Below are positions 38,340 through 64,000 of a stretch of 64,000 nucleotides of DNA, one piece after another. This stretch comes from Azolla caroliniana (Eukaryota; Plantae; Polypodiophyta): assembly GCA_043228905.1 (NCBI GenBank), contig JBHGNT010000011.1, positions 14,012,001 to 14,076,000 on the forward strand, in the 5' to 3' direction. A program made the position numbers and the translations under genes. Position 1 is the first letter of the stretch. Each line of letters begins with the position of its first letter. The notes below the pieces were generated by a model, which was not told where the DNA came from, did not search any database, and saw only the letters and a list, made by a program, of their open reading frames with translations.

Positions 38340-41300
38340 TCCCATAACCCCAATAATGATGATATTTAGGGAGAGTGGCAATGATATGATGTTTGAGTTC
38401 TATGGGACCTTATTGAGCCAATTGTGTTGGCACTTAGTGGAATCATAACAATGACATAATAGGCTATGGTGCAATTGTAGAGAGAGGGAGAGATAGGCTT
38501 ATGAACTAGCATTGATTCAAAAGAGGCAAACAATATATATGTTATGTGATCATTATATCTAAATCCTCTTTTTATTGTATTTGTGTTGAGGGATAGAATA
38601 AGTACATAATTTTATCATCCCCCTATTTGTTTCATATGCATAAGAAATTGTAGGTATCAACATCAAATCACAACATTAATACTTTTGTTATGGCTTAAAC
38701 AATGGTAGTGTCTTGCTTGTGTCGTGTAATGGATTTTAAACTTACACTCGTTAAGAAAGAGAAACAGAGTATCATGAAACGAAAATAGAAAAGACTTAGA
38801 TATGTGCAATACCAAATTGCAAACAATGAAATGATATACAATATTATTTCTTTATGTAAATGATAGGTTTTCATGTATTGTTGAATATTGTGAGGATACT
38901 AATCCAACGGGACCCAATGATTATCAAACCATAAATGGAGAATCCTCAAAATTTTAGTGTCACAAGGATAAGAATAAACAAATTTGCAAGACCTCAAAAT
39001 ATACTGTTAATATAGTTGGAATATCCACAATGAGGATATTCCATTAAGTTTATTTTAGAATATTTCGGTCATAATAGATAAAAGAAATTACAATGGAGGT
39101 TAGAAAATCAATAGTTGACTTATAGTTGCATGAACCTCTATCCATCTTTATACTCCAAAACCCCCTATGTGAACACATAATGTGAAAAGCTTGTACTAAG
39201 AGGTCATATGCACATGAAAGCAACCTTAATTGAGGGACAGTATTCGAAGTATGACTCCAAGGGAGGTGTCTCAAGTTTAGCCTTTATGGTATGAATGTGG
39301 GTTTGATTTGTGTTGTGCCTTAGGATATTGATATCCTCTAAGATATTAAACTTCTACAATGTGCATTCACCCTTAATGGGACGGAAGCTAGTGGTTTACA
39401 AGCCGAATCAACTCAATACATGTATAAAGAAATGGCTAAATGTCAATGTGATCTTAAGCTTTCACAAAACATTTCTACATATGTTGTGATAATTTGAAAA
39501 CTTGTTTGTTCAAGGCATCCTCATGTAAAGTTGAGATTGGTGGCCAAGTAAAAAGACATGCAGATTTTGCAAACAAAACTTCAATTTTCAGATTGTTCTT
39601 TAATGAAATATATATGAAGATTGTTGGGTACCGCCTTGCTATTATTAAAGAATGATATGTTAAACATTTTAGGGTTCCAATATGAAGGTTTTTCAAAGAA
39701 GTATATCGTAAACGTCAAAGCATGAAAAAGGCGTAATGTAAAAACATGACCCTTCAATGGCTAGCAATATGTTGTTGGCTCTAATTGAGCCCATAATGGA
39801 ATTTAGCCTTTATGATATGAATGTGGGTTTGATTTGTATTGTGCCTTGTGCCTTGAGTGATGCAACCCCCTCCAATATGAATCTTAATAAGTAATTGAAA
39901 ACTCTCTTGAAACCTCAAATTACACTAAGGCCTCTTCATAGTGTGGCAAACCATTCCGAATTATCAAGAAAATTCATGAGGTTGTTTTCCAACTTATCAC
40001 TGTACCCAAGTATGAAAATGTATTTCCTCCATGGCCAAAAGTGAGTCCAATGTTTGCACTTAGGATGAACATGATCATATATAATTTTTGCCAACAGCCT
40101 ATGTGCAAGGGAAAAAATGGATACTAAATGTGCTAATTGTAAGGGGCAAAATTGAAGGAGAATTATAAATTTCAAGGATTTTAATTTTTGGGCCCTATGC
40201 AAAACTTATTGAGTAGAATATCTATGGAACAAATGTGTCCTTGGCTATCCTATTTTAAGCTAGCCAAGCAATCAATGAGCTTGTTATTGACCGGAAATGC
40301 TTTGTTCCTTGTTCCTCATTATCATCAAGGAGGAGATGATCTTATTTAGTTTTCTTCATTGTTCTCAATTGTAAGAATCTCGTCTCTCTTTATAATAGAT
40401 GGCATATTGTAAATGGTCAACACCTCTTCTATAATTTTGTATTCTCACCAACTTTGTTCCTAAACATTGGATATCCAAAAAAGGATTTCTTTTTTAGGTT
40501 ACGCTCATGTTGGTTTCACATTATATGATGGGGTGATGGTTGGATTTGTTTAAGTCATATGCCATGTTTGTGTGACCATTTGCAACCGTGTTGTGCTTGA
40601 GTAATAGGTATATTATTTGGTCAACGAAATAATATAAATATTTCACATAAGGAAATTGTCATTGCGGAAATTTCTGTAAATGTCAAAGCCTAGAAAACAA
40701 GATATACTAGTTGAATAGAATACTAATATGTGCTTATGGAGATTGGCAACCAAAAGAATAAGACATTATGGGCATTAGCACAATGAGAAAGTATATCTCA
40801 ATCATATTTATAATAAAAAGTTAGCATATTATACTTGGTGTAAATTTTAATATAATAAACAAAAAGTGTGAATGTGATGGTGTTAATGTAGACCTTATGC
40901 TCGCTAACCTTGAAGTCGTGGGCCTAATACTATGTTTCTTGTGAAGTGCATCACAACTTTGAGTTTAACATAATTATATTATATGAGACAAAATGAGAGA
41001 TGGGAAAAAGTAACAATGTGAATGTAAGTTGTGTCTAGAAGAGGAGAGGAAGTAATACTTTCTCATTTCAGAATGAAAGGAAAAGCAAAGAAAAAGTATA
41101 TATGTGAGAAATGTTCTCTCACAAATTAGTTGGTGGAAGAAGTGTTCTCCTTTTTCATTCTTCTTGGGTCACGATGCTACTAACTTATAAGAAAACGGAG
41201 AGAAAATGAAATTAGAACGAATGAATCACACTCTATTGTCTTTGTCACTGGCTGACTTAGCTACACAAACTTGGAAAAACCTCATAATGCAATGGCATCA

Positions 41301-43185: not shown

Positions 43186-45701
43186 TTTCCAATTGGAAAA
43201 CATTGATTTGTTGTATTTTTGGATTTTGCCCAAACTATAAACTAGAGCTCATGTGCGACCATCATCATTAAAACATTGCCATTGTTTGAATGCTCACTTT
43301 CTTCATCTCTTGGGTTTAATATGAAACATAGATGGAATTATTGTTAACCACAAATTTGAGATTATTATAGAGTACAAAACCACTTCACCTTAGTCATTAC
43401 ACAATTTGGAGATCATTGTTAGAAGAATGTTCCATATGAGTTAGGGATTGCTTATGGATTTTGGACGCAACATATTTACATGCTGAGGTAATTAGACCTA
43501 TCGTGTTCAAGTCTATACTCAAAAAGTGTATGAGCAAGAAGGAAATCTTATTGTCAAATTTTAATTTGAGGTGTGATGAATTAAACTTGAGTCCAAAATA
43601 GCTTCCACCATTAGCCATGACTCTATTATGAATTAGGTTCACATGTTCGCTATTAGACGAGGAAATCATATTGAGTTCCATTACTGGCATAAAACTCTAT
43701 ACAAATGTTGTAGAAGGCCCAACAACATATCTGCCCACATGTCTCCCCCAACCTTGACAAATAATGTTAACATTACTCAACCTCCTCTACGTCCCATTTC
43801 AAAGTAATAAGTTGGCTACAATAACCTTAGTTAATGCTAGTGCCAATGTGCCAATCCTATCTTTTGATATTTGGGTCAATCAAGACTATCCCAAGCTTTA
43901 GTATTGCTATGACAAATAGACTTTAACACGCAAAGAACTCTTGCGTAAGATTACTTCCATTGAGATATGAATGTAGTGGAAAATTTGAAAATGTGGAGAA
44001 TAGATAGGTTTTCCTCACCCAACAAAAATATAAAAAGATGTGTGTTATGTGTTACTTGTAACACTTATGTGTGTGCGTGAGAGAGATTTTATCGTTGTCT
44101 TCAGAGGTCAAATATGACCTATAAGATTTTGTGATGGATGGACGAGTTGTGGTATAGGTTGGCTTCATTAGTTGCACAATCTCTGTAGAAAGCATAGTGT
44201 TGTAAGTGATGTGCCTTTTTTAAAACTAATGGAAGGATATTTTGTTTAAAAGAAGAAGAAGAAGAAGACCTAGGAGACAAAATATAACACTTTCACATAA
44301 TACATGTGAAAAAGAATAGCAAGTCTCAATGTTCAAGAACTTTAGACATGAATGTTGCAATTGAGAGTGCACAATATGAATGTGAGAGAGATTCGTGCAA
44401 GGATTGGTTTTGGTTGAAAATGTGTGGAAAACATTATCAGATGTGATCAAAGGCAAAGAACATTGTATCAAATTGTGATACCCAAACTCCCAAACATGTT
44501 TAGGGCAAAGTGTGCATTGTTGAATACACTCATATGCAATACAAGAGATCTCATAACTCAATTCAATGGTGCTCTCACCTTCTCTACTGTAAGTCTTATA
44601 ACCTGCACCAAACCTTGTGCTCTGCCCTTTGCTACCAAATATATCATTATCCTTTAGAGCATATTATAGAATCCCCCAACATGTTAATATTCAGTTTCAT
44701 GTTTCATTGATGCTTCTTTCTAAAAAATGATTTAGGGTGAACAAAATTTTTGGGAAATGTTGCCTTCACATTTTGCAAATTCAAAGGTATCTCAAGTAAC
44801 ATATAGGATCCTAGCTATAGATTATCTTTGGTCGTAAAAAAGTGAATTAGTGCAACTAATCTTTCATCCCACGATGGAAACCCCAATGGTATATTATTCT
44901 TAGATAAGACACAAAATGTGCCCAATAGTCGTTTGTTATTTTCTGTAAAGAATTGGGTATGATTCTTATGTAGCGGAAGAGATGTGTGTTATGTGTATGT
45001 GTGAGAGAAATTAGAGGAGAGATGAGAGAACACAAGATAGGTAGAAAAAGGAATACTCAAGAAGAAGGTGTATATTTCACAAGTAGAATAAGAATTACAA
45101 AATGTAGCATAATAAAGAGTCACAACCGACTTAGTATGAAGTATGAGGAGGGTGCTTTATATAGAGTCACCCTCTCTCTTCATTAAGTTTACAACAACCA
45201 CTCTCTCTCTTGGGGAATGTGAAGACTCATAGTCATGGGAAATATGTAACTCATTAGTTATGTGTCATAGAATATGATTGTATGACACATAGTTAATGTG
45301 TAGAGAGTAGTGGTGTGACTCTTGACCTTTGAGTAATCATGGATTCTCAAAAGGTGTGTTCACACGTTGCACTATGTTGAGCTTGATTCTCAACACGCCC
45401 CCTCAAGCTCAAGTCGGGTCGGTTCCTTTTGATTGATGTCCACTTCAGCTGGTATCCGGTTCAGACGATCTTCGGTGTCCGCTTCGGCTCGTACCTGGTT
45501 CGGACGGTATCCCAGTTCTCGCTTGTACTCCCCCTCAAGCTTGGCAAGTAAGGAATCGTTAATCCAAGGTCTGACAAGAATTGCCGAAACTTGTCGGCTC
45601 CTAAGGCTTTGGTGAAGATGTCGGCCGTCTGAAGATTCGTGTTGATGTGTTGAAGGTCGACATCTCCGGCCTGTACGTGCTCTCGAATGAAGTGATAGTG
45701 C

Positions 45702-46285
45702 ACTTCAATATGATTTGTGCGTGCGTGGAACACCGGGTTCCGAGCTAGATATATACTACTCATGTTGTCGTAGTAAATGGGAGTCGGATCCTTGATGGGG
45801 ACGCCCAGATCCTTCAAAATCCTCTTGAGCCATACGGCTTCACATGCAGCTATGGCTGTGCCCTTGTATTCGGCCTCCGTACTTCAATATGCTTTGTGCG
45901 TGCGTGGAACACCGGGTTCTGAGCTAGATATATACTACTCATGTTGTCGCAGTAAATGGGAGTCGGATCCTTGATGGGGATGCCCAGATCCTTCAAAATC
46001 CTCTTGAGCCACACGACTTCACATGTAGCTACGGCTGCGCCCCTGTATTCGGCCTCCGTACTCGAAAGTGTGGATCCTTGATGGGGACGCCCAGATCCTT
46101 CAAAATCCTCTTGAGCCATACAACTTCACATGTAGCTACGGCTGCGCCCTTGTATTCGGCCTCCGTACTCGAAAGTGTGGATCCTTGATGGGGACGCCCA
46201 GATCCTTCAAAATCCTCTTGAGCCATACGGCTTCACATGTAGCTACGGCTGCGCCCCTGTATTCAGCCTCCGTACTCGAAAGTGC
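45702..46285. repeat. Nested tandem repeats in Copia RNase H (179 bp x2 overlapping 107 bp x3)
   Basis: ACTTCAATATG starts at 45702 and 45881. The core GGATCCTTGATGGGGA...CTCCGTACT occurs at 45786, 45965, 46072 and 46179. Confidence 0.95.
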
Positions 46286-48511
46286 GACGGTAGGCTACTT
46301 CTTACTACTCCAAGATATTGCTCTGTTACCGAGCGAGAAGACAAATCCGGAGGTCGATCGTCGATCGGCTTTGTAGTCTGCCCAGTCCGCGTCTGTGTAC
46401 CCTTCGAGTCGTATTGGTGTGGCTGATGCGTAGTGAACGCCGTAATCCATTGTGCCGCTCACGTATCGTAATACTCACTTAGCGCAATTGAATCAGATAT
46501 CTCACGGAGTTTGCATGAATTGGCTAAGGAGTCCAACTGGATAGCTAAGGTCGGGTCGAGTGATCGTGAGATAGATGAGGCTCCCAATCAGTTGACGATA
46601 TTGGGTCGGCTCACACTCTTTTGTGCCGGAGTCGACATCCAATTTAAGGTTTCGATCGAGAGGGGTTGCCACAGATTTACACTGAGTCATCCCGAACTTG
46701 TATAACAAGTTGAGGATGTAGTGCCATTGGGAGATCATAATGCCGACCGGAGTCCGAATTACCTCGATGCCTAGGAAGTAATGAAGCTCCTTAATGTCCG
46801 TCATCTCAAATTTGTTGGAGAGGAGGGACTTCACCTTGTTGATGTCGACTAGACTTTCACCTCCAATGACCAGATCATCCACGTATAGGATGATGACAAT
46901 TAGGCTTCTAGAGTCGTGTCGTACGTAGAGGGAGTTGTCGGATTTTGACACTCGAAAGCCGATTTAATGAAGATATTGCGTAATCTTCGAATTCCAAGCA
47001 CGCAGTGCTTGCTTGATGCCGTAGAGTGGCTTCTTGAGTCGACACACGACTTTCGGATGAATGCGCGATTCGAAGCTGGGAGGTTTTACCATGTACACCT
47101 CCTCGTCTAATTCTCCTTGAAGAAAGGTGTTCTTGACGTCCATTTGGTGGAGGTGCCACCCTTTTGCCACTACACGTGCGATCACGGTCCGCACCGTCGT
47201 CATCTTTGCTACCGGGGCAAAGGTCTCTTCATAGTCGACTCCATGTGTTTGTGCGTATCCTTTCGCTACGAGTCGAGCTTTGTAACGGTTTATGGAGCTG
47301 TCGATATTATACTTCACCTTGTAGATCCATCTGCAGCCAATTGCCTTCTTGTGCGGTGAGTGGGGAACGAGATCCCATGTCTCATTCTTGGAGAGTGCTT
47401 GCATCTCCTCATTCATCGTTTCAACCCATCTTGGGTCCTTCGTGGCTTCGGAAAACGTTTCCGGCTCCCGTATTGTCGCTACCTTCAGCATAAAAGCGTA
47501 ATGGTACGCCATATAATTGTTGTAGCCAAATCGGTTTACGAGGTTCTTTTCACGGGTGGATCGGTGGAGCTTCTCGTTTGTGGATACTACGGCTTTCTCC
47601 GCTCCATTTGTCCGGATGTCAAGGCCTTCAAACTCACTATCGAGTGAGTGAGATGATTCGTTTCCGTCGAAGTGATCGTCTTCATACTCCGGCATTTTGG
47701 CCTTCCCTTGTCTAGCTTCGGACTCGGTCGAGATGTGCTTTGATGACTCAGAGGCTCTTGTGGTCCGCTCAATCGAGTTGTGATCGGATTTCTTCGAACA
47801 TGCGGGTAAAGCGTTCTTTATCCTCTATCTCTTGTTTGGCGGATTTCGGGTCGAGTGGAATCGAAGTCGAAGTTGTCTCTGGTGCGTACCAAGATGCGGA
47901 CTCATAAAAAACGACGTCCCGACTTACGCGAACTTTTCGAGTCGAGGGGTTATAGCACTTATACCCCTTTTGCTCCAGTGCGTATCCGATGAGGATACAT
48001 TTCTCCGACTTCGGGTCGAGCTTTTGTCGCTTTTCATCGGGGATGTGCACATACGCAATGGAGCCAAATATCCGGACGTGTGATAGATCCAGCTTCTTTC
48101 CAAAAAGCGTTTCGTGCGGCGTGAGGTCATGCACGCCGGATGTCGTACACTGATTCATGAGGTATACGGCCATGTTAACCGCTTCTGCCTAGTACGACTT
48201 CAGAACGTGCTTTTCGTTCATCATGACCCGTGCTACTTCGAGGATGTGCCGATTCTTTCGTTTGGCCACTCCGTTTTGTTGTCGCGTATGTCGACACGAA
48301 AACTCTCACCGAATTCCTTCTTTCCGTAGATACGCCGTAAACTCATCCGAGAAATATTCTTTGCCTCCATCCGACCGAAGACATCGTACATGTCGGCCCG
48401 TGGCTTTCTCGACTGCATTCTTGAATTTTTGGAAGTGTTCGAACACTTTGCTCTTTTGCTGCATCGGGTAGATCCAAGTGTGCCTAGAGAAGTCATCGAT
48501 GAAGGTCACGT

Positions 48512-51500
48512 TGTCGTGCCTTTCGGCTCCGGATCGTTGCGTGAGTCGGGTGGGAACCGCCGAGGTTTTGGACTAGGAGGAAGAGGAATACAAATTAAGG
48601 CTAGTTATGAATAGTAGAAAGAGAAGTAAGATAGCAATCTCGTGAATTCCACGAGTTTAGTGTATTTAAAACAATATTTAGATTATAAGAGTAATTTAGA
48701 TGGCAAAATTCGTGAATCCCACGAATATATTAGATTGATCAATCCTTGTATATTAATCAACACCCTTATACATATTTCTCTCCTCCTTATATAAAGATGG
48801 AAGAGGCTAAGAATGGCTTCATGCTTTTTCACCAAAAGTGTCCATGCACACTAAATGTGCATGTGATGCTTTGTCATTTCCTAAGTATAGGGCTCATGCA
48901 TGCTAGATGTGCATGAGTCACTTTTAATGTCACGTGTAAATAAAATATTTATTTATATGTATCTAAAATCGGATATATTATTTTATGGTTTTCACGTAGT
49001 GTGTGGAATACACTACGACACTCGCCCCCTCCGAACCCGCACATCCTCTGGTATGTGCCGAAGTTCTCGATTCCTCATATCCGTCTTCACCCAAAGCTTC
49101 CTCCGATTCTCCCCTTATGTCGACTATGAGTTGTAATTCACTTTCTTCGCTTCCCGTATCACCGTGGTCTTCGTCCGATTGCTCCTCGTTGTCGGCCTTG
49201 GCTTGGATCACATAGGGTTTGTCGTCGGTCCGCTTCTTGAAAATCTTCACCCACTTCCCGGCTATAGGCACTCGTAGTATTGTTCCATCCAACTCGGACA
49301 ATCGGTACGTTCCGTTGTCGAAGACTTTCCGAACCTCGTATGGCCCGAACCACCTTTTCGCGAATTTCCGCATCGTTGTATGTTGATGGTCCAAACTACT
49401 GTCATAGACAATCACCCAATCTCCTTCTTCAATCCTCCTCGGTCGTAGTCGGTGCTTTGTGTCGAACCGGCTTTTGTTCCGGAATCGTGCTTCTTGTTGT
49501 CGGCGTATTGCTTCCGCTATGTCTGCCGGTCTTCCCTCTAGTTGTCGTATCCGGACCGCTAGTAGTTCTTCCCGGCTCATCTCTTCCTTCCATGGTAGCA
49601 CTGTCCATGTTGCGATCGCGGTTTCCGTCGGCATTACCGGTGCTTGTCCGGTCATGAGTTCTGTAACCGGTTACGGAGCTATGCGTCGTCCGATCCGCCC
49701 ATAGTGCATACGGAAGCATCCGCGGCCAGTCCTTCACCTTTCCATCGCATGCCTTCGCAAGTGCTTTCACGATCGGACTATGTCCTCGTTCGATTTTCCC
49801 GTTGGCCTCCGGATTGTATGCCGTTGTCAGCGTTAACCGAACTCCGTGTTTGGCGAAGAATCCCCTAGCTTTGTCCGAGTCGAGTTCTCCCCGGTCCGCA
49901 ATCACTTGTCCTACGCACCCGTACCTGCAAAATACTTCCTCCAAAAGAAATTGGCATACCGCGGAACACGTTTTCCTCTGAAGCGCTCGACCTTCTACTT
50001 GATTCGTGAGATCTTCCCGAGCTAATACCAAGTATTTCTTTTGTCCGATCCCGGTCGGCATGGCCACTATGTAGACCATCCACTTGAAGTTGATTGTCGG
50101 TGAGAATGTCGGATGTAACTCATCTCGATGTCGAACCCCGGAGTAGACTTGACATTTCTCACAGCTTTCCGTGAACTTCGCGACATCTTTGTACATTTTC
50201 TTCCACCAATATTTTTGCTTGATCTTCACAAATGTTGCCCATGTTCCTCGGTGTCCAGCCCAATCGGATTCGTGAAACTCGGACATTATCCGGTTTCGTT
50301 GCTCTTTTGTCCCGACTACTCGAAGTGGTATACCATCCGGTCTTTTCGGCGCCCTCCATATTAATCCGTTTTCCAAGAAGAACTTTTGGACTTGCCTCTT
50401 CTTCCTTCGGATCTCGGCTCTTCTTCCTTCATCGTTTGTTGAATCCTCGACCTCTTGTAACATCTTTTCGATCATCAACCTTTCTCCCTCGTATTCTTCT
50501 TCCCGGAATTCTTGGATTACGTTCACTCGGCATATGTGCTCCGACGCGAAGTAGTCTTCGGAAACTTCTTCATTATTCGATTCAGTTATGTCATCTCCGA
50601 ACCGAGCCCTTGATAACATATCCGCTACCGCGTTGTCCTTCCCCGAGATGTGTCAAACCTCCGGATTAAGCGACTTGACATATGCAACCCACCTTAGCAT
50701 AGCTACATCCGGTATCGTACAACACCGCATCATCCCGAGTATCGGAAGACAATCCGTCTCGATCACCACTTCGGCTCCGATCAAATAATCCCGATCCAAT
50801 TTTATCGCCGACACGACTCCCCACAGTTCTCTTTTGACTTGTGCATATCCACGTTGCCTTTCGTTGAGAACCTTTGCTCTGAATCGGATCGGATACCGCG
50901 AACCATCCGAGTCGGCTTGATTGATGACCCACCCGATACCGGATGGACTTGTATCAACCGTTACTATGATCGGTCGGTCGTAGCTCGACTTCTTAAGTGC
51001 TTCTGCTCTCCGAAGTGTCTTCTTCAATTTCTTCATGGCTTTGGTGTGTTCCGGTTTCCATTCAAATTTCTTACCTTTCCACAACAAGTGGTAGAGCGGG
51101 TCCGCTATATGTGCATAGTGCGGAATCCATATGTGATAGAATGCACATGCACCGAGAAACCTTCGGACTTCGGATGTTGACTCGCATACTCCTCCATAGC
51201 TTGAATCGCATCGATCTTTGTTGGTGACGGTCTTCGGCCGTAGGGCCCACATAGATGTCCGACCACCAATATTTCTTCTTGCCCGAATGCCGATTTCTCC
51301 CCGGAAAGTGTTAGGTGCACATCTTCTAGCTTTCGCAACACTTTCTCGCAATCATGAATATGGTCGACCACGAACTTTCGGCATCCCCGATCATCCATAG
51401 TCTCATCTTTTTCTTCTACCGCGCATCCTTTCATCGGAATGTCATCGAGGAACGACATCGTTATCTCCGGAATGCAGTCTCGAAGCACCTTGTTCATCGC

Positions 51501-54500
51501 GTTCATCATATGAGCAACCGAGTTTGTCGCTTCTTGTGGTAGTGTGCACATTCGGACTAATCCTATCGGTGTTCGCATGGTTGTGATGTCTCGGCTCTCC
51601 ACGGCTAGTTGGAATTGGTCATACCCCGAGTATAGGTCTCCGATGGAGTATATCGCACGACCGGCAAAAGCTTCCGCAAATTCGTCCACTATTGGACCGA
51701 CTCCCGAGTTCCGGATCGTGACCTTATTCACCGGTTGCAAGTCTTGGATAAATCGGAGTGACCCATTCTTCTTCGGAACCGTAAACCATCGATTTGAGTA
51801 CGGAGCAGTTGATGGCTCTAGAATCCCCATCGCCACCTTCTCCTTGAGCAAGTCAATGACTTTCGGAATATGCGCTCGTGGCACCGGAATCGGCTTCAAG
51901 TTCCACGGTACATGGTCAATCGTGAAGATCACCATTGGCTCCACTATTCTCGGATCAACGCACCCTATCTCCCTTGATGTAAATGCAAACGCTTTGCCGT
52001 GTTGCTCCAACATCTCGCGAAACCGTTCTTCTTCTTTTTGTAATAGGAACCCACCTCCACCGATCCGAAGTTTCTTCCGGGTCTCATCCGTGAAGGCATG
52101 TCCGATATCCACGGACTTCTGAAGTGTCGGATCTCCCGAGACTTCTTTCCTCTTTTGTTCGCTATTGGCGGGTAGTGGTCCCGCGGCCGGTTTCACCTTC
52201 TTCTACACGGTCTTGTATTTCGTACTTACCATTGCTTCTTCTTTGCGGAGCGTATCCGGCTCCATTTTCGCAATGATCTCGTACATCTCGACCGATTCCA
52301 CCGGGACTACCCAGTTCCCTTGGCTTTTATCTTCCGCAAGCTCTTCAAGTCGTTGTAGCGTGCTCCCATAGAACACTTCTTCGACTATCCCCACGATTTC
52401 TTCATCTTCTTTTATTATTGATGCCGATCGCAACTTATCCTCCACTTGTCGGTATCCTTTCTTCAATCCTCCGGTTACGGTCGTGTACGTAGATGCCCCA
52501 TCTGGACCGATTCGTACATGTTTTGCTCCGAGAGTTTTCTTCCTGTGTGGGGTATCAGGGCTTCTCGGACTATCACTTCCCCACTCCACAACAGTCCGCT
52601 TTAAAAATCCATTCTCACTTGGGACAAGAGTTCCCTCTTGTTCCTTTCGTGATTTGCCGGCACCGTTAGGAATTGGACGAATTTCCCACCGTTTTGGCTC
52701 CAAATTCGCGCAAAAGCCGCACCGCTATCGAGCACCTTCGTCTCCATCCGTGATGCCGTGATAAAGGGTTGGCCGAGGATGACGGAATGTGAAACCTCAT
52801 CTTGCACGAAGAAATTTTGGTCGATCTCGACATCCCTGATCTTCACCGTCACATCCGGACAAGCCGCAAATAGATCTTCCGTTGCTTTGGTGGCCGCCCG
52901 AATCTTCCATCCACCATTGGAGCATTTTCCTCCGTACTTTGTCTTTTTCGCTTCACGAGATCCACGAGAAGATCGTGGAACTCCTTCTTTGCTATTCCGA
53001 GTAGCTCTCGAAGCGAGAAATCTACCCGGCTATCCAAGATTCTTTCCTCGAACACTCTTTTCAAGTCGGTTTGTTGTTCTATGTCCGAGGCGAGCTTCAA
53101 TGCCGGAGTCGCCTTTTCTTTTCCCTTACCTCTGGAGTTCCAGCTTTCCGGTATCTTCGATGGCCCGGCCGCATCCTCAATGCGTCGTCGTTTCTCGTCC
53201 ACATACACCTCATGCAATTGACACAGGGCGTATACGCTATTCTTGTCGACAGGGCACTCCCATCCCGTAGCTTCCCGGACGCCTTCCGCGGTGCTTCGGA
53301 TCTCGTTGGAGTCGGTTTTCTCGGTGTTTTCTAGAACTTCCGGCCAAAAAGACGTCTTTGCTCTCGATGACTCCTCGACACATATTCCCGCAGTTGTCGC
53401 ATAGTTGCTTCTTGCTGCCAATTCCTCCTCGATCACCTTCTTCATGCCGCCTTTCCGGAAGTTCGGTCGGAGTGGCTTCCGAGAGTCCATCGAATGAATC
53501 CGGTTTCCCTCATAGTAGATGAGATCCCGCCGTAGCGCCTCCTTATGCTTGTCGCAATCCCTCCAATTGTGTTTGGCGCTATCACACCATATGCACTGTC
53601 GGTCCGTATACTTGGAGCTTGTGGGGCGGTCATCCGACTTCTTCACCATCGCTATCTTCAGATTCTCCATCTCCTTCAATAGTTGCTCCACCGTAGATGC
53701 ATCAATCCCCTTCTCGGTTGTAGTCTCCCGAGCCCTCGGTTGATGGTCTTCCAATCCGGTTCTCGGTTTCAGAATCGGTTCCGAAACCCTCTTTTCCTCG
53801 TTGGCAAGCCATTGCCCCCTCTTCGTGTATCGCGCAACGATATCCCGCACGCTTTCCCATGTTTCGGTGAGGCCACTCTCCGTGGTCGTGTCCTCCAAGA
53901 GCACTTCGAGATCTTTCCGGTCCCGGACGTCCACGGCTCGTAAGAACATGATCACCTTGTCCGGTACGAGGATAGCTTGATCTCTCGCGGACAACCTCCC
54001 GAACCGGCTTTTGAATGCCGAAAACACATCAACGACCTTCAATCCCTTGTCCGGTGTCTCCACCCAATCTTCGAATCCCCTTCACGTCGCCTTGGAGGAA
54101 TCCTCGATGGCGAACGTCCTCTTTATCTCTTCTTCAAACGCCTCCCATGTCGGATTTTGTTGTCGTAGCCCATGGATGCTTGCTTGAAGCCCGTTGGTCG
54201 CCACCCGGTTGAAGGACGTCACTTGCAGTCCTTCCGATATTCCGCACCGTAGCATCTCCGCCTTGTAGTCCCGAAGATACTACGACACGTCTTTCCCGTT
54301 GAATTGCCCGTTTCGTTGCACGAGCCGCTCCACTGATGCCGCTATCTCCGACATTGCGCGTTGTTCTTGTAGCATGCGCTCGAACATCATCATCATGTTG
54401 CTAGCCTCCAGTTGATTTTCCATCTCCTTGCCACCCGGTATTCACGTCGGGTTCACCAATTGTGTCGTGCCTTTCGGCTCTAGATCGTTGCGTGAGTCGG

Positions 54501-54971
54501 GTGGGAACCGCCGAGGTTTTGGACTAGGAGGAAGAGGAATACAAATTAAGGCTAGTTATGAATAGTAGAAAGAGAAGTAAGATAGCAATCTCGTGAATTC
54601 CACGAGTTTAGTGTATTTAAAACAATATTTAGATTATAAGAGTAATTTAGATGGCAAAATTCGTGAATCCCACGAATATATTAGATTGATCAATCCTTGT
54701 ATATTAATCAACACCCTTATACATATTTCTCTCCTCCTTATATAAAGATGGAAGAGGCTAAGAATGGCTTCATGCTTTTTCACCAAAAGTGTCCATGCAC
54801 ACTAAATGTGCATGTGATGCTTTGTCATTTCCTAAGTATAGGGCTCATGCACGCTAGATGTGCATGAGTCACTTTTAATGTTACGTGTAAATAAAATATT
54901 TATTTATATGTATCTAAAATCGGATATATTATTTTATGGTTTTCACGTAGTGTGTGGAATACACTACAACA
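48512..54971 (-). mobile_element. Full-length (defective) non-chromovirus Ty3/Gypsy element with tRNA-Trp PBS (Gypsy-1; Phygy-like by inference), inserted in Copia integrase
   Basis: LTRs 48512-49020 and 54463-54971 (509 bp, about 5 transition differences). 4-bp TSD ACGT/ATGT restores the Copia YYVTFIDD frame. PBS TGGTGAACCCGACGTGAAT at 54440-54458. PPT GGAGGGGGCGAG. Domains: gag, PR C-terminal half, RT (YSGYDQF, FLDD), RH, INT with GPY module. No chromodomain. Confidence 0.97.
52544..52610 (-). other. Putative -1 programmed ribosomal frameshift signal (G GAU UUU + H-type pseudoknot)
   Basis: Minus strand: GGATTTT TAAAG CGGACTGTTG TGGA GTGGGG AAG TGATAGTCCG ..13nt.. CCCCAC. The gag-PR frame stops at TAA (52601-52603) while the -1 frame is open toward RT. 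Confidence 0.75.
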
Positions 54972-56622
54972 ATGTAGTATCGGCATCCGCCGAATGTCAC
55001 CATCTGAGCCAGACCCCATACATCATAATGAATTACGTCGAGTATGCCTTTGCTCACATTCCGTTCCTTCAGAAATGGGTGCCGATTTTGCTTGCCGAAT
55101 TGGCAAGCGGCACACACGCCTTCAATCTCTTTCTCTGTGAATGTAGGGAGCCCGATGAGGACTCCTTTCGATTGCATTGCCTTGAGCTTTTGGAGGTTGA
55201 TATGGCCAATCCACTTGTGCCATAACTCTATGTCGGAATCGGCTTTCATGCCCTTTGCAAACATGGCCGATTTCATCTCGTGTGAGTCGAGAATGAACAT
55301 TCGGCCCTCTCTTTGTCCGTGAGCGATGAGTCGGCCCTCTTTTTCGATGAAGCAACTGCCTTGATTAAATCGTACTTGCATTCCTTGCTCTACAATTTGG
55401 CCGACGGAGACCAAAGTCTTCGTGATAGTTGGTACATGCAAGACATTTTTAATGTAAGTTTCAGAAGGTTCCTCGATGGCTTCTGTCTTGATGCCGAAAT
55501 TGCGAGTGGTTTTCGTAACTCGGGCCTCGTCTGCATCGTCCTTGGCCGAATTGGCCTTTTCTTGCATGGCCACGTCCTCTTCCTCTGTCCGAATGTGTGT
55601 AGAGCATGTGGCCTTCCGAGGTGTTGCTCCTCGTTCGAACATGGTTTTCTTTGACGAACAACATAGATTGAAGATCAAAGAAGGAGGGTGGATTCTCCCG
55701 TGCTAATACGACGGTCCGCATCGCACTGAATCGTGGTGCAAGGCTGCCGAGGCATATTTGCACCATCTCATCATCGTCCACATTGACGCTTATCGAGCCA
55801 AGCGAGTCGCAAAGCTCCTTGATCTTCAAGGTGTAGCTTGTGATGGACATATCCCTTTGTTGAATGTTGTTCAACTCTTGGCGGAGTTGAAGCTTTCTCA
55901 CGGTATTGTTGGCGGCGAAAATCTTTCGTAGATTCTCCCACGCTTCCTTCGGCGTCTCGGCTTCTCGAATGTACCCGAGCATGTGGTCGTGAACACATGT
56001 CACCAAGCAATACAACACGAGCTATGTAGTGGTACTACAATAGCGATGAGCCGGTTCTTCTTGAACGTCGGCGTAGAGCACACCACACGATCACAATGAG
56101 GCGAGTGGGCTAGATCGAGCTACCAAATCGCTCTAATACCATGTAAAGAATCGAGTATGATTCTTGTGTAGCGGAAGAGATGTGTGTTATGTGTATGTGT
56201 GAGAGGAATTAGAGGAGAGATGAGAGAACACAAGATAGGTAGAAAAAGGAATACTCAAGAAGAAGGTGTATATTTCACAAGTAGAATAAGAATTACAAAA
56301 TGTAGCATAATAAGGAGTCACAACCGACTTAGTATGAAGTATGAGGAGGGTGCTTTATATAGAGTCACCCTCTCTCTTCATTAAGTTTACAACAACCACT
56401 CTCTCTTGTGGGGAATGTGAAGACTCATAGTCATGGGAAATATGTAACTCATTAGTTATGTGTCATAGAATATGATTGTATGACACATAGTTAATGTGTA
56501 GAGAGTAGTGGTGTGACTCTTGACCTTTGAGTAATCATGGATTCTCAAAAGGTGTGTTCACACGTTGCACTATGTTGAGCTTGATTCTCAACATTTTCAC
56601 ATGAACAACATAAATAGCACGT

Positions 56623-58727: not shown

Positions 58728-61700
58728 TGTCACGCGCGTGCGTGTAGAACGAGGCGGGACCACCGGGGTCTTGGACCGAGAAATAACTGAGAAGGAGGGG
58801 AACGGGAAGGCAACAGACGCACTTGCACGCACACGAACGCGGGGCACACAGGAATCACAATGCATCAACACAACAAAACGAGACGACTAGAAGTCTGAGT
58901 ATATGAACACGTATGTATATTAATTTGTATGTGTATATCAAGACGGTTACAACTAACAGGCCGGCAAGGCGAACGCCGACGCCTGTTCACTCACACGTAG
59001 AAGAGCGAGATGGAGACTCTACCGGAAGCACACGGGCGTTCCACGAAGCAGAGTCAGCCTCCCGAAAACCTGCGCCCAACGAATACAGAGAAAGGAGGAG
59101 GAGAAGAGCTCGGTCCCCGTCCGACAGCACTTCGTCTTGCACAAAAAAAATGATCCCCTTTTCATTCCTCTCCTTCTCTTTTATAGCCCAAGGAGGGAGG
59201 CCGTTATCATTCGTTACATCATATTAATTCTCTGTCCGTTCGGACAGAGATACACCTTGATTCTCTCCCTATTGAATGCGTGCTATCTAGGATTTCATCT
59301 CAGCCGACTTGTACCTACCTACTTACTATACAACGAAAGTGTGCTCACGTGTAAGGGCCGATTTACACACGCTAAATTCGGTTTCCGCCTAGGGACGGTT
59401 TTCTTCACGACATCTGCCCCCACCTAACCACACATCCACCGGTATGCGCCAAAATTGGGCTCTTGCCGGAGAAAACCGGTCCATGCTTTACTCCTCGCCT
59501 TTCGGGTCGTCATCTGCCTCGGACCTTCCGTCGTCACCGTCCATGCTTTCCAGATCTGGCTCGCACTCGTGTCGTTTCTTAAATGCTTTGGCCCTCTTCC
59601 CCGCTACCAGTATTGCCATCCTCGTACCGTCGAGCTCCGCAAGATGGTAGGTCCCGTTGTCGTTGGCGCCTGTCACCGTGTAGGGCCCAAACCACCTCCT
59701 TGCAAACTTTCGCGTCGCCCTGTGCTGGTTGTCGAGGCTACTGTCATACACTAGGACCCAATCGCCTTCCCCGATTTTCTTCGGTCGCAGTCGGTGAGTC
59801 CAGTCAAATCGCCCTTTGTTCTTCAACCTTGCCAACCAAAGCTTCTCCGTGGCTCTTTCCACGTCCTCCGGCCTCCGCTCGAGCTGTCGAATCCGTGCCG
59901 CCAGCAACTCCTCTCGGCTCATCTCATCTCTCCAGTCCACCGTGGCCCATGAGGAGATCGTCCGTTCCGTCGGCATGATCGGCTTCTGTCCGTACATAAG
60001 CTCTGCTGGCATGAACCCGGTTACCGAACTGTGCGTAGTTCGGTCCACCCATAAGGCATAAGGTAGCAGTCGTGGCCAGTTCCCTACTTGGCCCCCGCAC
60101 GCCCGTACTAGCGCTTTGACTACTGGCCTATGTCCGCGCTCCACCTTCCCGTTAGCCTCCGGATTGTACACTGTGGTGAGCGAGAGTTTGACCTCTAGCC
60201 GGTCAAACAACTCTTCGGCCTCTTGCGCGTCCAACTCTCTGCGGTTAGCCACGATCTTCCCTACACTCCCGTACCGACATATCAAGTCCTCAATCAGGAA
60301 CCGGCACACAACCGCGGTTGTTTTGTTTTGCAGTGCTCGGCCTTCAACCTGGTTCATCAGATCCTCCCGAGCTAGCACCAGATACCGCATCTGTCCTACC
60401 CCCATCGGCATTGTCACAAAATCCACCATCCATTTGAAGTGGACGATCGGCGGGTAAGTTGGGTGGAGCTCGTCCCGGTGTCGGACTATGGAGTGCATCT
60501 GACAGCTTTCGCAAGTTGTCACGAACCGATGCACGTCCCGATACAGTCCCGACCACCAGTACTTTCCCTTTAGCTTCTCAAACGTGGCCCATGTCCCGCG
60601 GTGTCCGGCCCAGGGACTCTCGTGGTATGCCGACAACAACTCTTCCTGCTCCTCTTTCTTTGCCACCACTCGAAGCGGGATGCCGTCCCTTTTCTTCGGG
60701 TGCTTCCATATGTACCCGTCTCGTAGGAAGAATCGGTACGCTTTCTTCCGGATCCTGTTGGTCTCTTCCTTCGTCCACACCGCGTCCGGTGTCATTGTTC
60801 TTAGGAACTCGCCGATCTGGAGCCACTCCCCATCATACTTGCTCTCGTTGAAGTCGTTAAGCGCCGGAGTGCTTCCCTTTCCGGTTATTATGTAAGCCGC
60901 CTCGAAGAAGTCTACGCCGACTTCCTCGTCCTCCGAAACCATGCCGTCCTCGTTTTCGAACCTTGCTCTTGAGAGCATGTCGGCCATGGCGTTGTCTTTT
61001 CCGGAAATGTGTCGTATCTCCGGATTTAGGGACTTGATGTACGTTATCCACCTGAGCATCGTCAGGTCCGGCGTCGCGCATCCGGAAACCATGCCGAGAA
61101 TCGGCAGGCAGTCCGTCTCGATTATTACCTCTGTCCCGATCAGGTAGTCTTTATCGGCCTTCACCGCCGAAATGATACCCCAGAGTTCGCGTTTAACCTG
61201 GGCGTATCCTCGTTGTCGCTCACTGAGGACCTTCGCGTCGAACTGGATGGGGAACCTCATGCCAACGTCATCCTCTTGGTTGATCACCCATCCGATCCCG
61301 GTCGGGCTCGTGTCTACGATTACGTAAATCGGAGTGTCTCTGCAGTAGACAACCTTTCGGAGCGCCGGTGCCGTGGCAAGTGCTTCCTTCATCTTTCGGA
61401 CTGACTCCGTATGCTCGTCTCCCCATTCGAATTTACGCCCTTTCTTCAGCAACCCATACAGCGGCTCCGCGATGTGGGCGTAATGCGGGATCCAGATATG
61501 GTAGAACACGCATGCTCCCAAGAATCTCCGAACCTCCGTAACCGAATTGCAGTCATGCTTCATCGCAGAGATGGCTTCCACCTTGGCCGGAGACGGTTTC
61601 CTACTGTACGGCCCACATAGGTGTCCGACGACCATGATCTCTGATTGCCCGAAGGCCGATTTTTCTTCGGAGAAGGTGAGCCTCGCGCCTTCTAGTCTCT

Positions 61701-62288
61701 GCAGCTCCTTCTCGTAGTCATCGATGTGAGTCGCCACGAAATTCCAGCATCCGTCCGGTCCAATTGTCTCGTTTCTTTCCTCCACCGGGCATCCCCTAAT
61801 CAGGATGTCGTCTAAGAATGGCATGGTGATGATGGGATACAATCCCCGAGCACTTTGTTCATCGCGTTCACCATGTGAGCCACTGAGTTCGTCCCTGCTT
61901 GCGGTAGGGTACACATCCGCACTAGGCCGAGAGGAGTCCGCATTGTCGTAATGTCCCTGCTCTCCATGGCTAGTAGAAACTGATCGTACCCCGAGTATAG
62001 ATCACCGACAGAGTAAATCGACCTTCCGGAAAAGGCCTCCGGGAACTCATCTATGGTCGGTCCGATTCTTGCATTCTGAATGGTCACCTTGTTGACCGGC
62101 TGCAGGTCTTGAATAAAGCGCAGCGTGCCGTTCTTCTTTGGCACCGTAAACCACCGATTTGAATACGGGGCACTCAACGGTTCGAGGATGCCCATCTCCA
62201 CCTTTTGCTTCAGAAGCTCCATCAACTTCGAGATGTGAGCTCTCGGCACTGGAATCAGATTGAGATTCCACGGTACATGCGGTACCGT
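58728..62288 (-). mobile_element. Gypsy-3: 3' LTR and RT-RH-INT, interrupted in RT by Gypsy-4
   Basis: LTR 58728-59412 (TGTCACG...CACGACA) with PPT GGTGGGGGCAGA. ORF 61812-62249 is RT N-terminus (YSGYDQF). ORF 59488-61914 covers FLDD, RH (VDTSPTGIG) and INT (H..H..C..C, GPY). Confidence 0.93.
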
Positions 62289-64000
62289 TGTCGAGGTATT
62301 CCTCGCGGATGCGTGGAATGAGGCGGGACCTCGGGGGTCCTGTACCGAAGAGTAAGAGAGAGAGAGAGAGACCCACTACGTGCGAGCGTAGATTCACAGG
62401 GACACGGCCCTTCCACGCAAAGACGCGAGCGGGACAGCGACACAGAAAGACACGAAAGTATGTATGTATTGACAAGACAAACAACAAGAACACGAAGACA
62501 ACAAAACACGAAGTCGGTTACAACCGAACAGGCCGGCGAACAGATGCCGATACCTGCTCGTAAACGCACAAAGGGGGATGAGTAGGTTGGAGGTGCTGCC
62601 GGAAGCACTCGGGCATTCCTTAGAGCAGCGCGGGCCTCCCGAAACCTGCACAGAAAGAAGCTATGGCGTTTGCAACCAGAAAGAGAGAGAGAGAGAAGCC
62701 TTCGCACGCAAACCGACAGCAGTTCGTCCTCGACTCTCCGCGATCCCTCTACCCTCCTCGTCTCCCTCCTTTTATAGGCAAGGAAGGAGCCGTTTCCCCT
62801 TTACTCCCTACCTACCGAATCTACCTAGGATCTCCTATGTACAACTTAAGGCGCACGTGCATGAAGAGTCGGTTTCTACGCTCCGGTACACCGATTCCGC
62901 TTGTGGACGGTTTTCTTCACGACATCCGCCCCCACCTAACCGCGCATCCACCGGCATGCGCCAAATTGTGTTGGGACGGAGAAAACCGGTCCAGCCTTCA
63001 TTCCCCGCCCGTCGGTTCTTCCTCGGTTTCGGATCGATCGTCGTCCCGGTCCAGGTTAACCGGATCCGGCTCGTCGTCGTGACGCTTCTTGAACGCTTTG
63101 ATCCGTTTCCCAGCTACCGGTATCGCCACTCTCGTGCCGTCGAGTTCCGCCAGATGGTACGTCCCGTTGTCGTTGGCGCTTTGTACCACGTAAGGCCTGA
63201 ACCACCTCCTTGCGAACTTCCGCGTTGCTCGGTGCTGGTTGTCGAAGCTGCTGTCGTAGACTAGCACCCAGTCGCCTTCCTCGATCTTCTTCGGTCGGAG
63301 CCGGTGCGTCCAGTCGAACCGGGCTTTGTTCCTTGTCCTGGCCACCCGAAGCTTTTCCGCAGCCTGCTCCACGTCCTCCGGTCTCCGCTCGAGCTGTCGT
63401 ATGGGCGCCGTCAACAGTTCCTCCCGGCTCATCTCGTCTCTCCAGTCCATGGTTACCCATGAGGAGACCGTACGTTCGATCGGCATGATCGGCTTCTGCC
63501 CAAACATGAGCTCTGCCGGCATGAATCCGGTTACCGAAGTGTGCGTAGTCCGGTCAGCCCACAACGCGTAAGGCAGTAGCCGCGGCCAGTTCCCGACTTG
63601 ACCTCCGCATGCCCGAACTAACGCCTTGACGATCGGTCCGTGTCCGCGCTCCACCTTCCCATTTGCCTCTGGATTGTAAGCAGTGGTAAGCGAGAGCTTG
63701 ACCCCTAACCGGTCGAACAACTCCTCGGCCTCTTCGGCGTCCAACTCCCCGCGATCAGCCACGATCTTCCCGACGCACCCGTACCGGCATATTACGTCCT
63801 CAAGCAGGAACCGACATACGGCCGCAGTCGTTTTGTTCTGAAGGGCCCGGCCTTCCACCTGGTTCGTTAGATCTTCCCGAGCCAGGACCAGATACCGCAT
63901 CTGTCCTACTCCTATCGGCATCGTTACCAGGTCTACCATCCATTTGAAGTGGATGGTCGCAGGGTACGTAGGGTGAAGTTCGTCCCGGTGTCGGACTATG
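62289..64000 (-). mobile_element. Gypsy-4: 3' LTR and integrase (continues beyond window)
   Basis: LTR 62289-62924 (TGTCGAG...CACGACA) with PPT GGTGGGGGCGGA. ORF 62998-63939 is an integrase very similar to Gypsy-3. Confidence 0.93.

Follow-up and report, generated by a model that had tools for sequence, protein, structure and literature searches.

CWG depletion with CpG retention in a Phygy-like Ty3/Gypsy family of Azolla caroliniana, consistent with selection at silent codon positions

Organization and insertion site of Gypsy-1

The window analyzed here is a stretch of 64,000 nucleotides of Azolla caroliniana DNA (contig JBHGNT010000011.1). It contains a Ty3/Gypsy element, Gypsy-1, inserted in the integrase region of a Ty1/Copia element (44944..56593, minus strand; LTRs at 44944-45395 and 56142-56593, 98.5% alike). 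Gypsy-1 also lies on the minus strand, as oriented from its ORFs, primer-binding site, and polypurine tract, and it bears the hallmarks of its superfamily. The 5′ LTR (54463..54971) and the 3′ LTR (48512..49020), each of 509 bp with TG...CA ends, are enclosed by a 4-bp target site duplication of the NCGN type, whose right copy (54972..54975, plus strand) is one CpG transition away from the left copy (48508..48511, plus strand). The primer-binding site (54441..54458, minus strand) begins with TGG, and its primer is presumably tRNA-Trp; like the duplication and the polypurine tract (49021..49032, minus strand), it was located from the sequence. The gag (DUF4100) and protease region (52601..54420, minus strand) is split over several frames and lacks about 210 bp near 52910 compared with the related locus L003, while pol (49030..52724, minus strand), encoding reverse transcriptase, RNase H, and an integrase with a Tf2-1-like SH3 tail, is disrupted by stops and 1-nt indels. 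Pfam searches of the window ORFs and of the related contig L002 confirmed the domain order gag-PR-RT-RH-INT and gave no chromodomain family match at E 0.01-0.05; no ORF beyond gag-PR and pol was found in L002, L003, or Gypsy-1. Between the two LTRs, 5 of their 509 positions differ, in agreement with the identity of about 99% given in the first-pass annotation. All five differences are transitions, four of them at CpG, and two come from a single CCGG of the 3′ LTR that was hit twice. This CpG decay indicates that the copy did not escape methylation.

These features resemble those of the non-chromovirus Ty3/Gypsy clade Phygy, characterized, in the part of the description available, by a short, polyprotein-filled interior and an NCGN target site (Neumann et al. 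2019, PMC6317226). Gypsy-1 is 6.46 kb long, its polyprotein spans the interior, it has neither a chromodomain match nor an extra ORF, and its duplication is of the short NCGN type, as judged from one insertion only. That text describes Phygy as Physcomitrella-specific and, in the same part, does not mention CWG avoidance. The nearest named proteins to Gypsy-1 are those of the liverwort Riccia, with about 70% RT identity. We describe the element as Phygy-like only, by its features rather than by tree placement with Phygy references. Two other elements of the window served as comparators, namely Gypsy-3 (59383..62290, minus strand; CWG observed/expected, o/e, 0.79-0.85) and the Gypsy-4 integrase (62890..64000, minus strand; 0.94-1.07).

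Loss of CWG triplets with persistence of CpG and CCG/CGG

Direct counting over positions 48512-54971 gave 19 CAG and 17 CTG, 175 CCG and 135 CGG, and 456 CpG. The 36 CWG compare with 152.1±10.0 expected from 200 dinucleotide-preserving shuffles, the lowest of which held 125, and about 80% of the CAG/CTG triplets are gone from the Gypsy-1 family. Under the same shuffling, o/e was 1.42 for CCG/CGG and 1.24 for CpG, the LTR contained 0 CWG against 9.9±2.7 expected (lowest shuffle 3), and the reverse transcriptase stretch 51361-51720 had 1 against 8.3. CCWGG was likewise absent from the element (0 vs 8.3 expected). The hand counts of the first-pass annotation were all correct (no CWG in the LTRs, 1 CWG and 20 CCG/CGG at 51361-51720, and 10 CWG at 61801-62160 of Gypsy-3), as was its statement that CpG is not depleted. 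Its claim of richness in CCG/CGG also held, but not as a difference from the other elements: Gypsy-3 and Gypsy-4 share this enrichment (1.23-1.26), and the Gypsy-3 stretch itself holds 18 CCG/CGG.

Amino-acid composition was ruled out as the cause. With amino acids held fixed, Gypsy-1 has 32 CWG vs 144 expected (o/e 0.22; pol 0.19), compared with an o/e of 0.85 for Gypsy-3, 0.94 for Gypsy-4, and 1.11 for host GH3 genes, and with codon usage held fixed too, the count is 32 vs 81. Only 3/51 Gln codons are CAG and 5/112 Leu codons CTG. The depletion covers LTR, gag, and pol, shows no 5′ gradient in Gypsy-1, affects CAG and CTG of the sense strand equally (17 and 19), and occurs with every flanking base (e.g., 22 vs 86 and 14 vs 56). 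Scarcity of CWG alone is not distinctive, since o/e is also low in old intergenic DNA of the window (0.21-0.43) and in the Copia element around Gypsy-1 (0.28-0.51). The intergenic DNA, however, has lost CpG (0.34-0.41) and CCG/CGG (0.70-0.73) as well, the joint loss that, with a gain of TG/CA products, marks ordinary methylation-driven decay; Gypsy-1 does not fit this pattern. What distinguishes Gypsy-1 is the loss of CWG while CpG and CCG/CGG persist.

Families were compared by means of 80 loci found in public metagenome assemblies, the best 80 of 153 confirmed in a search seeded with Gypsy-1; high-coverage loci are family contigs collapsed from several related hosts rather than single copies of known age. 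Locus L042, whose longest ORF is gag and which lies on a false long branch, was omitted from the codon tests, and L061 and L080 were excluded from the decay spectrum (46/48 retained). The intact Gypsy-1-family contigs (L001-L003, L054) are poorer still in CWG than the window copy (o/e 0.13-0.26), and 13 of its 36 CWG read CCG/CGG in both relatives compared. The bias is thus inherited and a property of the family, as the first-pass annotation had proposed with an active progenitor as the source. It is not common to all intact families, for which o/e ranged from 0.13 to 1.0 across loci and from 0.15 to 0.87 inside one assembly. In the trees, the Gypsy-1 family is nested among undepleted families of the same host, and its true sister is L005, a family without the bias; Gypsy-3, previously taken for the sister, belongs to another clade (66% nucleotide identity).

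Causes unrelated to a chromomethylase (CMT) could comprise GC/CpG-biased conversion or repair, for which CpG o/e exceeds 1, avoidance of CAG as a splice acceptor, or an origin in an organism with CCWGG (dcm-type) methylation, in line with the missing CCWGG. Splice-site avoidance was ruled out because sense CTG is as depleted as sense CAG, and a dcm-type origin because all flanks are affected and the family nests among host families; the bias also recurs in unrelated elements, as described below. CpG-biased conversion was likewise ruled out, as the share of C before G is 0.54 vs 0.60 elsewhere, no TpG to CpG shift occurs outside C-n-G, and xCG codons followed by H are unchanged relative to the sister. 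Given the strand symmetry and the context controls, such causes are largely refuted and very improbable.

Direction of change at locked codon sites

Locked sites were defined as xCN codons followed by G, in which the protein fixes the C and the G and the middle base is silent; codons with no following G served as controls. The middle base was C or G at 111/123 locked sites of Gypsy-1 vs 110/218 control sites (p=9e-15) and at 89/95 vs 75/164 in L002 pol, the effect at locked sites amounting to about 18-fold odds, compared with 43/89 vs 82/161 in the sister L005. Codons lacking the C showed no effect of a following G (0.50 vs 0.51). When changes were polarized by sister and outgroup, W-to-S changes made up 15/17 of those before G and 21/40 of the others (p=0.015), a second comparison giving 17/18 vs 18/40 (p=3e-4); with the sister as the focal lineage, the values were 8/19 and 22/40. 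Among 22 locked CWG common to sister and outgroup, 17 had become CCG/CGG, 3 were kept, 2 were otherwise changed, and none was deaminated, while in a second set 23/27 had become CCG/CGG and 1 was deaminated. Survivor bias was ruled out, as locked sites are not fewer (95 vs 89 in L005). Residue conservation made no difference to the strength of the switch (21/22, 19/20, 49/53), and locked CpG was not avoided (xCG before H 64 vs xCA before H 70).

In contrast to locked sites, most CWG in frames 1 and 3 that outgroups also have had turned into TWG or CWA. At the sequence level there are two exits from CWG, a deamination-type exit where that change is silent and a middle-base switch where it is locked. 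The first-pass annotation had posed selection and deamination as alternatives to be separated by the direction of change. Both parts stood, as the move of locked CWG to CCG/CGG points to selection and that of free CWG to CAA/TTG/CTA-type triplets is deamination-like, but the either/or did not. Selection against CWG in the Gypsy-1 family is thus well supported by the codon patterns.

Part of the loss would be explained by a neutral process in which methylated CWG were deaminated little by little through many rounds of transposition and the triplet itself was not under selection. Old intergenic DNA reaches an equal CWG o/e (0.21), Gln and Leu codons have moved as deamination would move them, even where the locked-site switch is lacking (families L047, L049, L029), and the free CWG described above fit this process. 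Deamination cannot, however, change the middle base, and at four-fold sites before WG Gypsy-1 has C at 0/59 and T at 2/59 (p=2.5e-6 vs its own control and 4e-4 vs the sister), with no excess of T at these 59 sites. Enrichment of TAG, CTA, CAA, and TTG is only 1.02-1.15, although in both the element and intergenic DNA it is too weak to tell the models apart, and the fall of CpG (0.34) and CCG/CGG (0.70) in neutral DNA has no counterpart in Gypsy-1. The same T-excess test in a second family, L011, gave 16 pyrimidines at 73 sites (p=0.004 vs its own control), and 15/68 in the undepleted L024, so it does not discriminate there. A Leu codon-class test (CTR/CTY), designed to single out selection at the DNA level, was not specific, with odds of 0.42-0.59 in depleted and 0.41-1.10 in undepleted families. 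As a sole cause, neutral deamination is largely refuted, as it would explain part of the loss and not its pattern, and we regard it as the least probable of the readings considered.

Regarding the mutation spectrum, C-to-T changes in decayed copies affected 47/522 CWG, 113/2001 CG, 43/881 outer C of CCG, and 65/5049 CHH sites. Since CWG is the most mutable context, the agent acting against it would be CWG methylation, and at these rates a move to CCG/CGG lowers locked-site mutation by only 1.7-fold. Along the branches that lead to intact contigs of the family, 4/27 and 4/24 CWG sites changed, while CG changes (19/588 and 17/611) were CHH-like. Five decayed close relatives (L004, L006, L076, L015, L052) had 3/38 retained CWG mutated, without hypermutation, and these few retained CWG are probably constrained sites.

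The mutability of CWG would also fit a selective gain in mutational robustness, in which active copies are CWG-methylated yet unsilenced, deamination of a locked CWG kills the copy, lineages with CCG/CGG there survive longer, and free CWG are lost neutrally; selection would then act on the mutation load and not on silencing. Elevated change at CWG but not CG on the active-family branches agrees with methylated, mutating active copies. Leu CTG, in which both deaminations are silent, is depleted 5-11 fold, somewhat less than Gln CAG and locked sites, and makes up 6/14 of the CWG remaining in L002 pol; moreover, in a rough two-state calculation, a large population of copies with 5-7 fold hypermutability could arrive at about 5% W at locked sites. 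Robustness nevertheless requires CWG-only methylation of active copies, given that CCG/CGG is nearly as mutable in decayed ones and that locked CpG is not avoided. Under robustness, the switch should also be strongest in pol, which is conserved, but the observed switch is independent of residue conservation, is confined to gag in L017/L020/L021, and is most extreme in the low-complexity ORF and flanks of a pol-less element. We consider this reading possible but unlikely.

Recurrence, proposed explanation, and known systems

The bias is not unique to Gypsy-1, as had been supposed, but recurs in other Gypsy lineages, in the surrounding Copia, and in a pol-less element. The separate lineage L010-L013 showed the switch (11/13 locked vs 5/22 control, p=5.5e-4), and so did the surrounding Copia (44/55 vs 79/161). 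The switch was also found in gag of L017/L020/L021; in L017/L020 it was present in gag (44/49) and absent from pol (41/76; p=2.5e-5). The gag and pol trees of this clade agree, which rules out a chimeric origin of the L017 gag, and a switch in the less constrained, promoter-near gag rather than in pol fits silencing better than protein protection. In the pol-less element of L041, all 124/124 locked sites had C or G, with 1 CWG in 2.7 kb vs 93 expected; its low-complexity ORF with flanks had 5 in 4.1 kb vs 95 expected. Gypsy-1 and L005, L011 and L053, and gag and pol of L017 form natural matched pairs.

Gypsy-1 is decayed, and its Phygy-like family is present in high copy number. As the probable explanation of its bias, we propose that selection on transposing copies eliminated the triplet that a CMT-type chromomethylase prefers as substrate, which would delay CHG/H3K9me2 silencing. 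According to the portions of the cited work available, CMT prefers CWG and CCG methylation depends on MET1 (PMC5221884, PMC6453930, PMC9256654), CHG methylation has a greater silencing effect than CG on the TEs of moss (bioRxiv 2020.03.04.971267), and Ceratopteris, with two CMTs and without active RdDM, carries CHG methylation in its repeats (PMC9477723). The preference for CWG over CCG derives from moss and angiosperms, not from this host. CCG/CGG would be a refuge because CMT methylates CWG unaided, and CCG mainly after MET1 has acted at the inner CG. A newly inserted copy nearly devoid of CWG would provide little substrate for the CMT-SUVH loop, and this may prolong its transcription and yield more offspring copies, even if copies are eventually methylated, as the CpG decay of Gypsy-1 suggests. 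The gain from CWG loss would more probably be escape from CMT silencing than protection from lethal deamination.

Chances are about even that in this fern lineage several unrelated retrotransposons independently recoded LTRs and coding sequence from CWG to CCG/CGG, with CWG density an evolvable dial of silencing speed and families split by the limiting methylation pathway. If so, CWG-poor/CpG-rich and CpG-poor/CWG-normal families would reflect which pathway limits each, and CWG density would parallel, in plants, the suppression of CpG seen in animal viruses. How new TE copies are first recognized and silenced without RdDM in plants is described, in the part of the source available, as an open question (PMC13457619). 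A codon-level footprint against CWG, and not CCG or CG, may indicate the transposition-limiting mark without any methylome. The locked-site statistic needs sequence alone, is applicable to any plant TE library, and turns the loose idea of TEs shedding methylatable sites into a measurable effect. Were the explanation true, swapping CWG for CCG/CGG could slow transgene silencing as a design rule.

The closest precedent is ONSEN/ATCOPIA78 of Arabidopsis, whose LTR without CHG was proposed to block CMT3 and KYP/H3K9me2 (Cavrak et al. 2014, PMC3907296). As far as described there, CG and all CHG are missing, and only from an AT-rich (28% GC) LTR. In Gypsy-1, only CWG is removed, the LTRs holding 15 (5′) and 16 (3′) CpG and 5-7 CCG/CGG, and the bias extends through the coding sequence (5.4 kb, 48% GC), with a synonymous direction that points to selection. 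In Physcomitrium patens, the young LTR families Gypsy-11 and Copia-2 are likewise depleted of symmetric sites, with proposed methylation avoidance (Domb et al., bioRxiv 10.1101/2020.03.04.971267). Their LTR regions are CHG-depleted and CG-enriched, CHG being the stronger silencing mark. The available part of that study puts the loss down to deamination and contains no CWG/CCG split or codon-level test; unlike these elements as described, Gypsy-1 switches locked sites to CCG/CGG. Methylatable-site content also varies among maize TE families, carried by the element and not its surroundings (Stitzer et al. 2021, PMC8547701), although that account, as available, is descriptive, with CG and CHG both lost, tied to TG gain by deamination, and no CWG/CCG split. 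VANDAL families counter host methylation through the encoded protein VANC and binding motifs, according to the part available (PMC10398659); Gypsy-1, in contrast, has no extra ORF, and the escape proposed for it is passive sequence composition. No report of CWG-specific, CpG-sparing synonymous TE recoding was found in the literature searched, mostly without subscription papers or supplements. The precedent is the CG/CHG-free ONSEN LTR, and what is new is an element-wide, coding, CWG-specific, CpG-keeping, and convergent bias.

Finally, contigs low in CWG tended to be highly covered (rho -0.34, p=0.018, 47/50 contigs), a correlation that rests on two low-CWG clades, on loci from the Gypsy-1-seeded search, and on collapsed-contig coverage as a rough proxy for copy number. 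The highest-coverage contig, L036 (290x), has a CWG o/e of 0.76, so CWG avoidance is not needed for success. RNA depth was low for every family in two polyA RNA runs (about 12% read), and its differences are hints. Sense depth reached at most 11.6 and 8.1 over Gypsy-1 gag (from copies 90-95% alike) and at most 4.3 over Gypsy-3/4, an unfair comparison because these window copies are 84-89% alike to their family contig. For L041, where depth came from 166 and 95 mostly partial reads, the CWG-free part showed a sense depth of 0.7-3.5 in six successive bins in X23, and the CWG-normal part was mostly at 0.

Structure and surroundings of Gypsy-1

Gypsy-1 (48512-54971, minus strand) is a 6.46-kb Ty3/Gypsy element encoding gag (DUF4100), protease, RT, RNase H, and integrase, with no match to a chromodomain. 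Its features fit the Phygy clade as described in an excerpt of PMC6317226, a likeness by description and not by tree, and its nearest named proteins are from Riccia. The copy is disrupted into several frames and, compared with the same-family contig L003, is missing approximately 210 bp close to the protease; its LTRs are 99.0% alike, close to the estimate in the first-pass annotation. Because four of the five LTR differences and the single difference between the target duplications lie at CpG, the copy has probably been methylated since insertion. The element is nested inside a Ty1/Copia element (44944-56593) and flanked by a 4-bp, NCGN-type duplication (48508-48511/54972-54975); an integrase that seeks out CpG would preferentially land in young elements with abundant CpG, the Copia being one example, and insertion of this kind may have caused the nesting. 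The Copia LTRs contain no CWG (CAG/CTG) and little CpG (0.22-0.29), resembling those of ONSEN, and its interior is CWG-poor and CpG-normal; a related solo LTR is located at 12586-13049.

The window also carries an inverted pair of GH3 acyl-amido synthetase genes (21160-23814, plus strand; 29522-31963, minus strand), approximately 82% alike, each split into two coding blocks and depleted in neither CWG nor CpG, with best named protein relatives from Adiantum (60%, 59%) and Ceratopteris (54%), which makes a fern the likely host. A tandem array at 36120-38346 (approximately five units of 421-464 bp, 81-93% alike) is AT-rich and strongly poor in CWG and CpG, and a reverse-transcriptase fragment (RVT_1; 1969-2442, minus strand) lies within old, methylation-depleted DNA.

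CWG depletion in Gypsy-1 and its relatives

Gypsy-1 contains 36 CWG, 310 CCG/CGG, and 456 CpG sites. Dinucleotide shuffles predicted 152 ± 10 CWG for the whole element and 9.9 ± 2.7 for the LTR, both copies of which have none, while the observed/expected ratio (o/e) was 1.42 for CCG/CGG and 1.24 for CpG, as expected from the earlier claim that CpG is not depleted. The hand counts of the first-pass annotation were exact on recount (no CWG in the LTR; 1 CWG versus 20 CCG/CGG in the RT stretch 51361-51720; 10 CWG at 61801-62160 of Gypsy-3), and under the codon-aware comparison it had proposed, the coding pieces had 32 CWG versus 144 expected with amino acids fixed and 81 expected with codon usage also fixed. 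Gypsy-3 (59383-62290; 0.85), Gypsy-4 (62890-64000; 0.94), and the GH3 genes (1.11) were near the amino-acid-fixed expectation. The depletion is present in each of the three codon phases, equal on both strands, and extends beyond CCWGG. Of the 36 CWG, 13 are CCG/CGG in both same-family contigs L002 and L003 and just 11 are CWG in both; the progenitor was therefore even CWG-poorer, in line with the suggested inheritance of the bias. CWG poverty is common to the whole genome region, old intergenic DNA having o/e values of 0.21-0.43 (CWG), 0.34-0.41 (CpG), and 0.70-0.73 (CCG/CGG), which tempers the Gypsy-1 finding; under neutral decay, all symmetric sites are lost jointly.

Among the best 80 of 153 related loci (L001-L080, from public metagenome assemblies), intact contigs belonging to the Gypsy-1 family (L001-L003, L054; 90-95% at the nucleotide level) had amino-acid-fixed CWG o/e values of 0.13-0.26, and L002 used CAG in 0/37 Gln codons. 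Gypsy-3 had been taken as the sister element; in the tree, Gypsy-3 and Gypsy-4 fall in another clade and the sister is L005 (0.74), followed by L007/L008 (0.77-0.82). A second, separate CWG-poor clade (L010-L013; 0.16-0.26) adjoins L053 (0.71), and most families lie at 0.6-1.0. Inside a single assembly the ratio ranged from 0.15 to 0.87; the bias is therefore not common to all intact families, and the equal depletion in all young families considered in the first-pass annotation was absent. Low-CWG contigs had the highest coverage in five of the six assemblies containing one (rho -0.34 between CWG level and coverage, 47 contigs), yet L036, with the highest coverage of all contigs, is not CWG-poor. 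Causation could run either way, because abundant families meet more chromomethylase (CMT) and more efficient selection.

Direction of change and its possible causes

At locked sites, where a Ser, Pro, Thr, or Ala codon precedes a codon starting with G, the protein fixes C and G, leaving the middle base as the sole silent position. This base was C/G in 111/123 cases in Gypsy-1 versus 110/218 without a following G, in 89/95 versus 75/164 in L002 pol, 45/59 versus 64/169 in L011, and 44/55 versus 79/161 in the window Copia; the values were 43/89 versus 82/161 in the sister L005, 13/53 in L007, and 72/130 versus 136/207 in GH3. No such effect before G was seen at four-fold codons with a base other than C at position 2, and the number of locked sites was not lowered (95 versus 89 in L005). 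In eight intact families (L034, L035, L037, L039, L043, L045, L047, L051), the profile was opposite (CpG o/e 0.5-0.6, CWG 0.84-0.92, locked middle base C/G in just 6-20%), a hint that active families within a single host group fall under two different methylation regimes.

Changes were polarised with sister and outgroup trios, which share sequences and are hence not mutually independent; in the Gypsy-1 family, A/T had become C/G at 15/17 sites before G versus 21/40 otherwise (p = 0.015), and 17/18 versus 18/40 with deeper outgroups (p = 3e-4). The excess recurred with L011 as focal (11/13 versus 5/22) and was absent with L005 (8/19 versus 22/40). Shared locked CWG became CCG/CGG in 17 cases, were kept in 3, changed otherwise in 2, and were deaminated in 0, while CpG deamination would drive CCG/CGG to CWG, against the observed direction. 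Where deamination is silent, CWG did change in its direction, so that of the two causes left open earlier, selection fits the locked sites and deamination these others; the T excess before WG that C-to-T change alone predicts was not found at four-fold sites (C 0/59, T 2/59). The avoidance of CWG in Gypsy-1 is a real feature. Neutral mutation cannot produce the locked-site pattern, selection against CWG can, and such selection is very likely.

In 46/48 non-reference copies compared with the nearest intact ORF (non-synonymous positions, conserved residues), C-to-T change affected 47/522 CWG, 113/2001 CG, 43/881 outer C of CCG, and 65/5049 CHH; CWG is therefore the most mutable context in the host group, which heavy methylation of these sites would predict. 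Locked CWG might thus be selected against as hot spots of lethal mutation, an unlikely explanation overall, although it is in agreement with branch rates (CWG 4/27 and 4/24; CG 19/588 and 17/611; CHH 27/1031 and 36/1096) and with Leu CTG being lost somewhat less strongly. However, by the decay spectrum the swap to CCG/CGG lowers mutation at each locked site pair just from ~18% to 10.5%, CpG at locked positions shows no avoidance, and whether a residue is conserved or variable makes no difference to the effect (21/22, 19/20, 49/53; poorly aligned columns are included in the third class). Moreover, in L017, L020, and L021 the switch is limited to gag (44/49 versus 41/76 in pol; p = 2.5e-5), which is less conserved than pol (79% versus 94% between L017 and L021), the gag and pol trees of this clade agreeing; the switch score was higher in gag in 23/26 elements, which are not phylogenetically independent, and avoidance is extreme (124/124 locked sites) in the pol-less L041 element with its low-complexity ORF.

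Silencing avoidance is probably the main cause of the selection, a proposed mechanism of benefit, and the two may act together. A fresh copy without CWG would give CMT little substrate until CG methylation was established. In excerpts of the cited papers, CMT enzymes prefer CWG approximately three-fold in vitro (PMC9256654), CCG methylation also requires MET1 while CAG/CTG requires CMT only, and the feedback loop is proposed to be weaker for CCG (PMC5221884; moss: PMC6453930); CHG is the stronger silencer of moss TEs compared with CG (bioRxiv 2020.03.04.971267), and in Ceratopteris, which possesses two CMTs, repeats are rich in CHG and RdDM is not active (PMC9477723). The idea that TEs shed methylatable sites to evade silencing is already known: passages in these sources describe an ONSEN LTR without CG and any CHG (PMC3907296), young moss Gypsy-11 and Copia-2 with symmetric sites depleted, attributed to deamination (bioRxiv 2020.03.04.971267), and maize families without methylatable CG/CHG (PMC8547701). 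Within the literature searched (main texts, few subscription papers), no case emerged of synonymous recoding that spans a whole element, targets CWG specifically, and keeps CpG, backed by a directional test or by convergence.

Other CWG-poor elements

The most extreme avoidance among the elements examined was in the pol-less LTR element L041:7300-11400, whose gag-like start is shared with the neighbouring Gypsy. It has 5 CWG versus 95 expected (1 versus 93 in 2.7 kb at 62% GC), a CpG o/e of 1.24-1.34, and a 2337-bp CWG-free run at 61% GC; its 1098-aa low-complexity ORF had no Pfam match, and DNA sequencing runs from the organism group of the window contain relatives. In L017, L020, L021, and L026, CWG o/e is graded, from 0.10-0.38 in LTR and gag to 0.47-0.66 in pol, increasing towards integrase. 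L018, with gag grouping with L011/L012 and pol with the L017/L033 clade, is likely a recombinant with a CWG-poor 5' part. Finally, a second gag-like element in opposite orientation (L062:2438-4400; 501-aa ORF, CWG o/e 0.11) adjoins a CWG-normal Gypsy.
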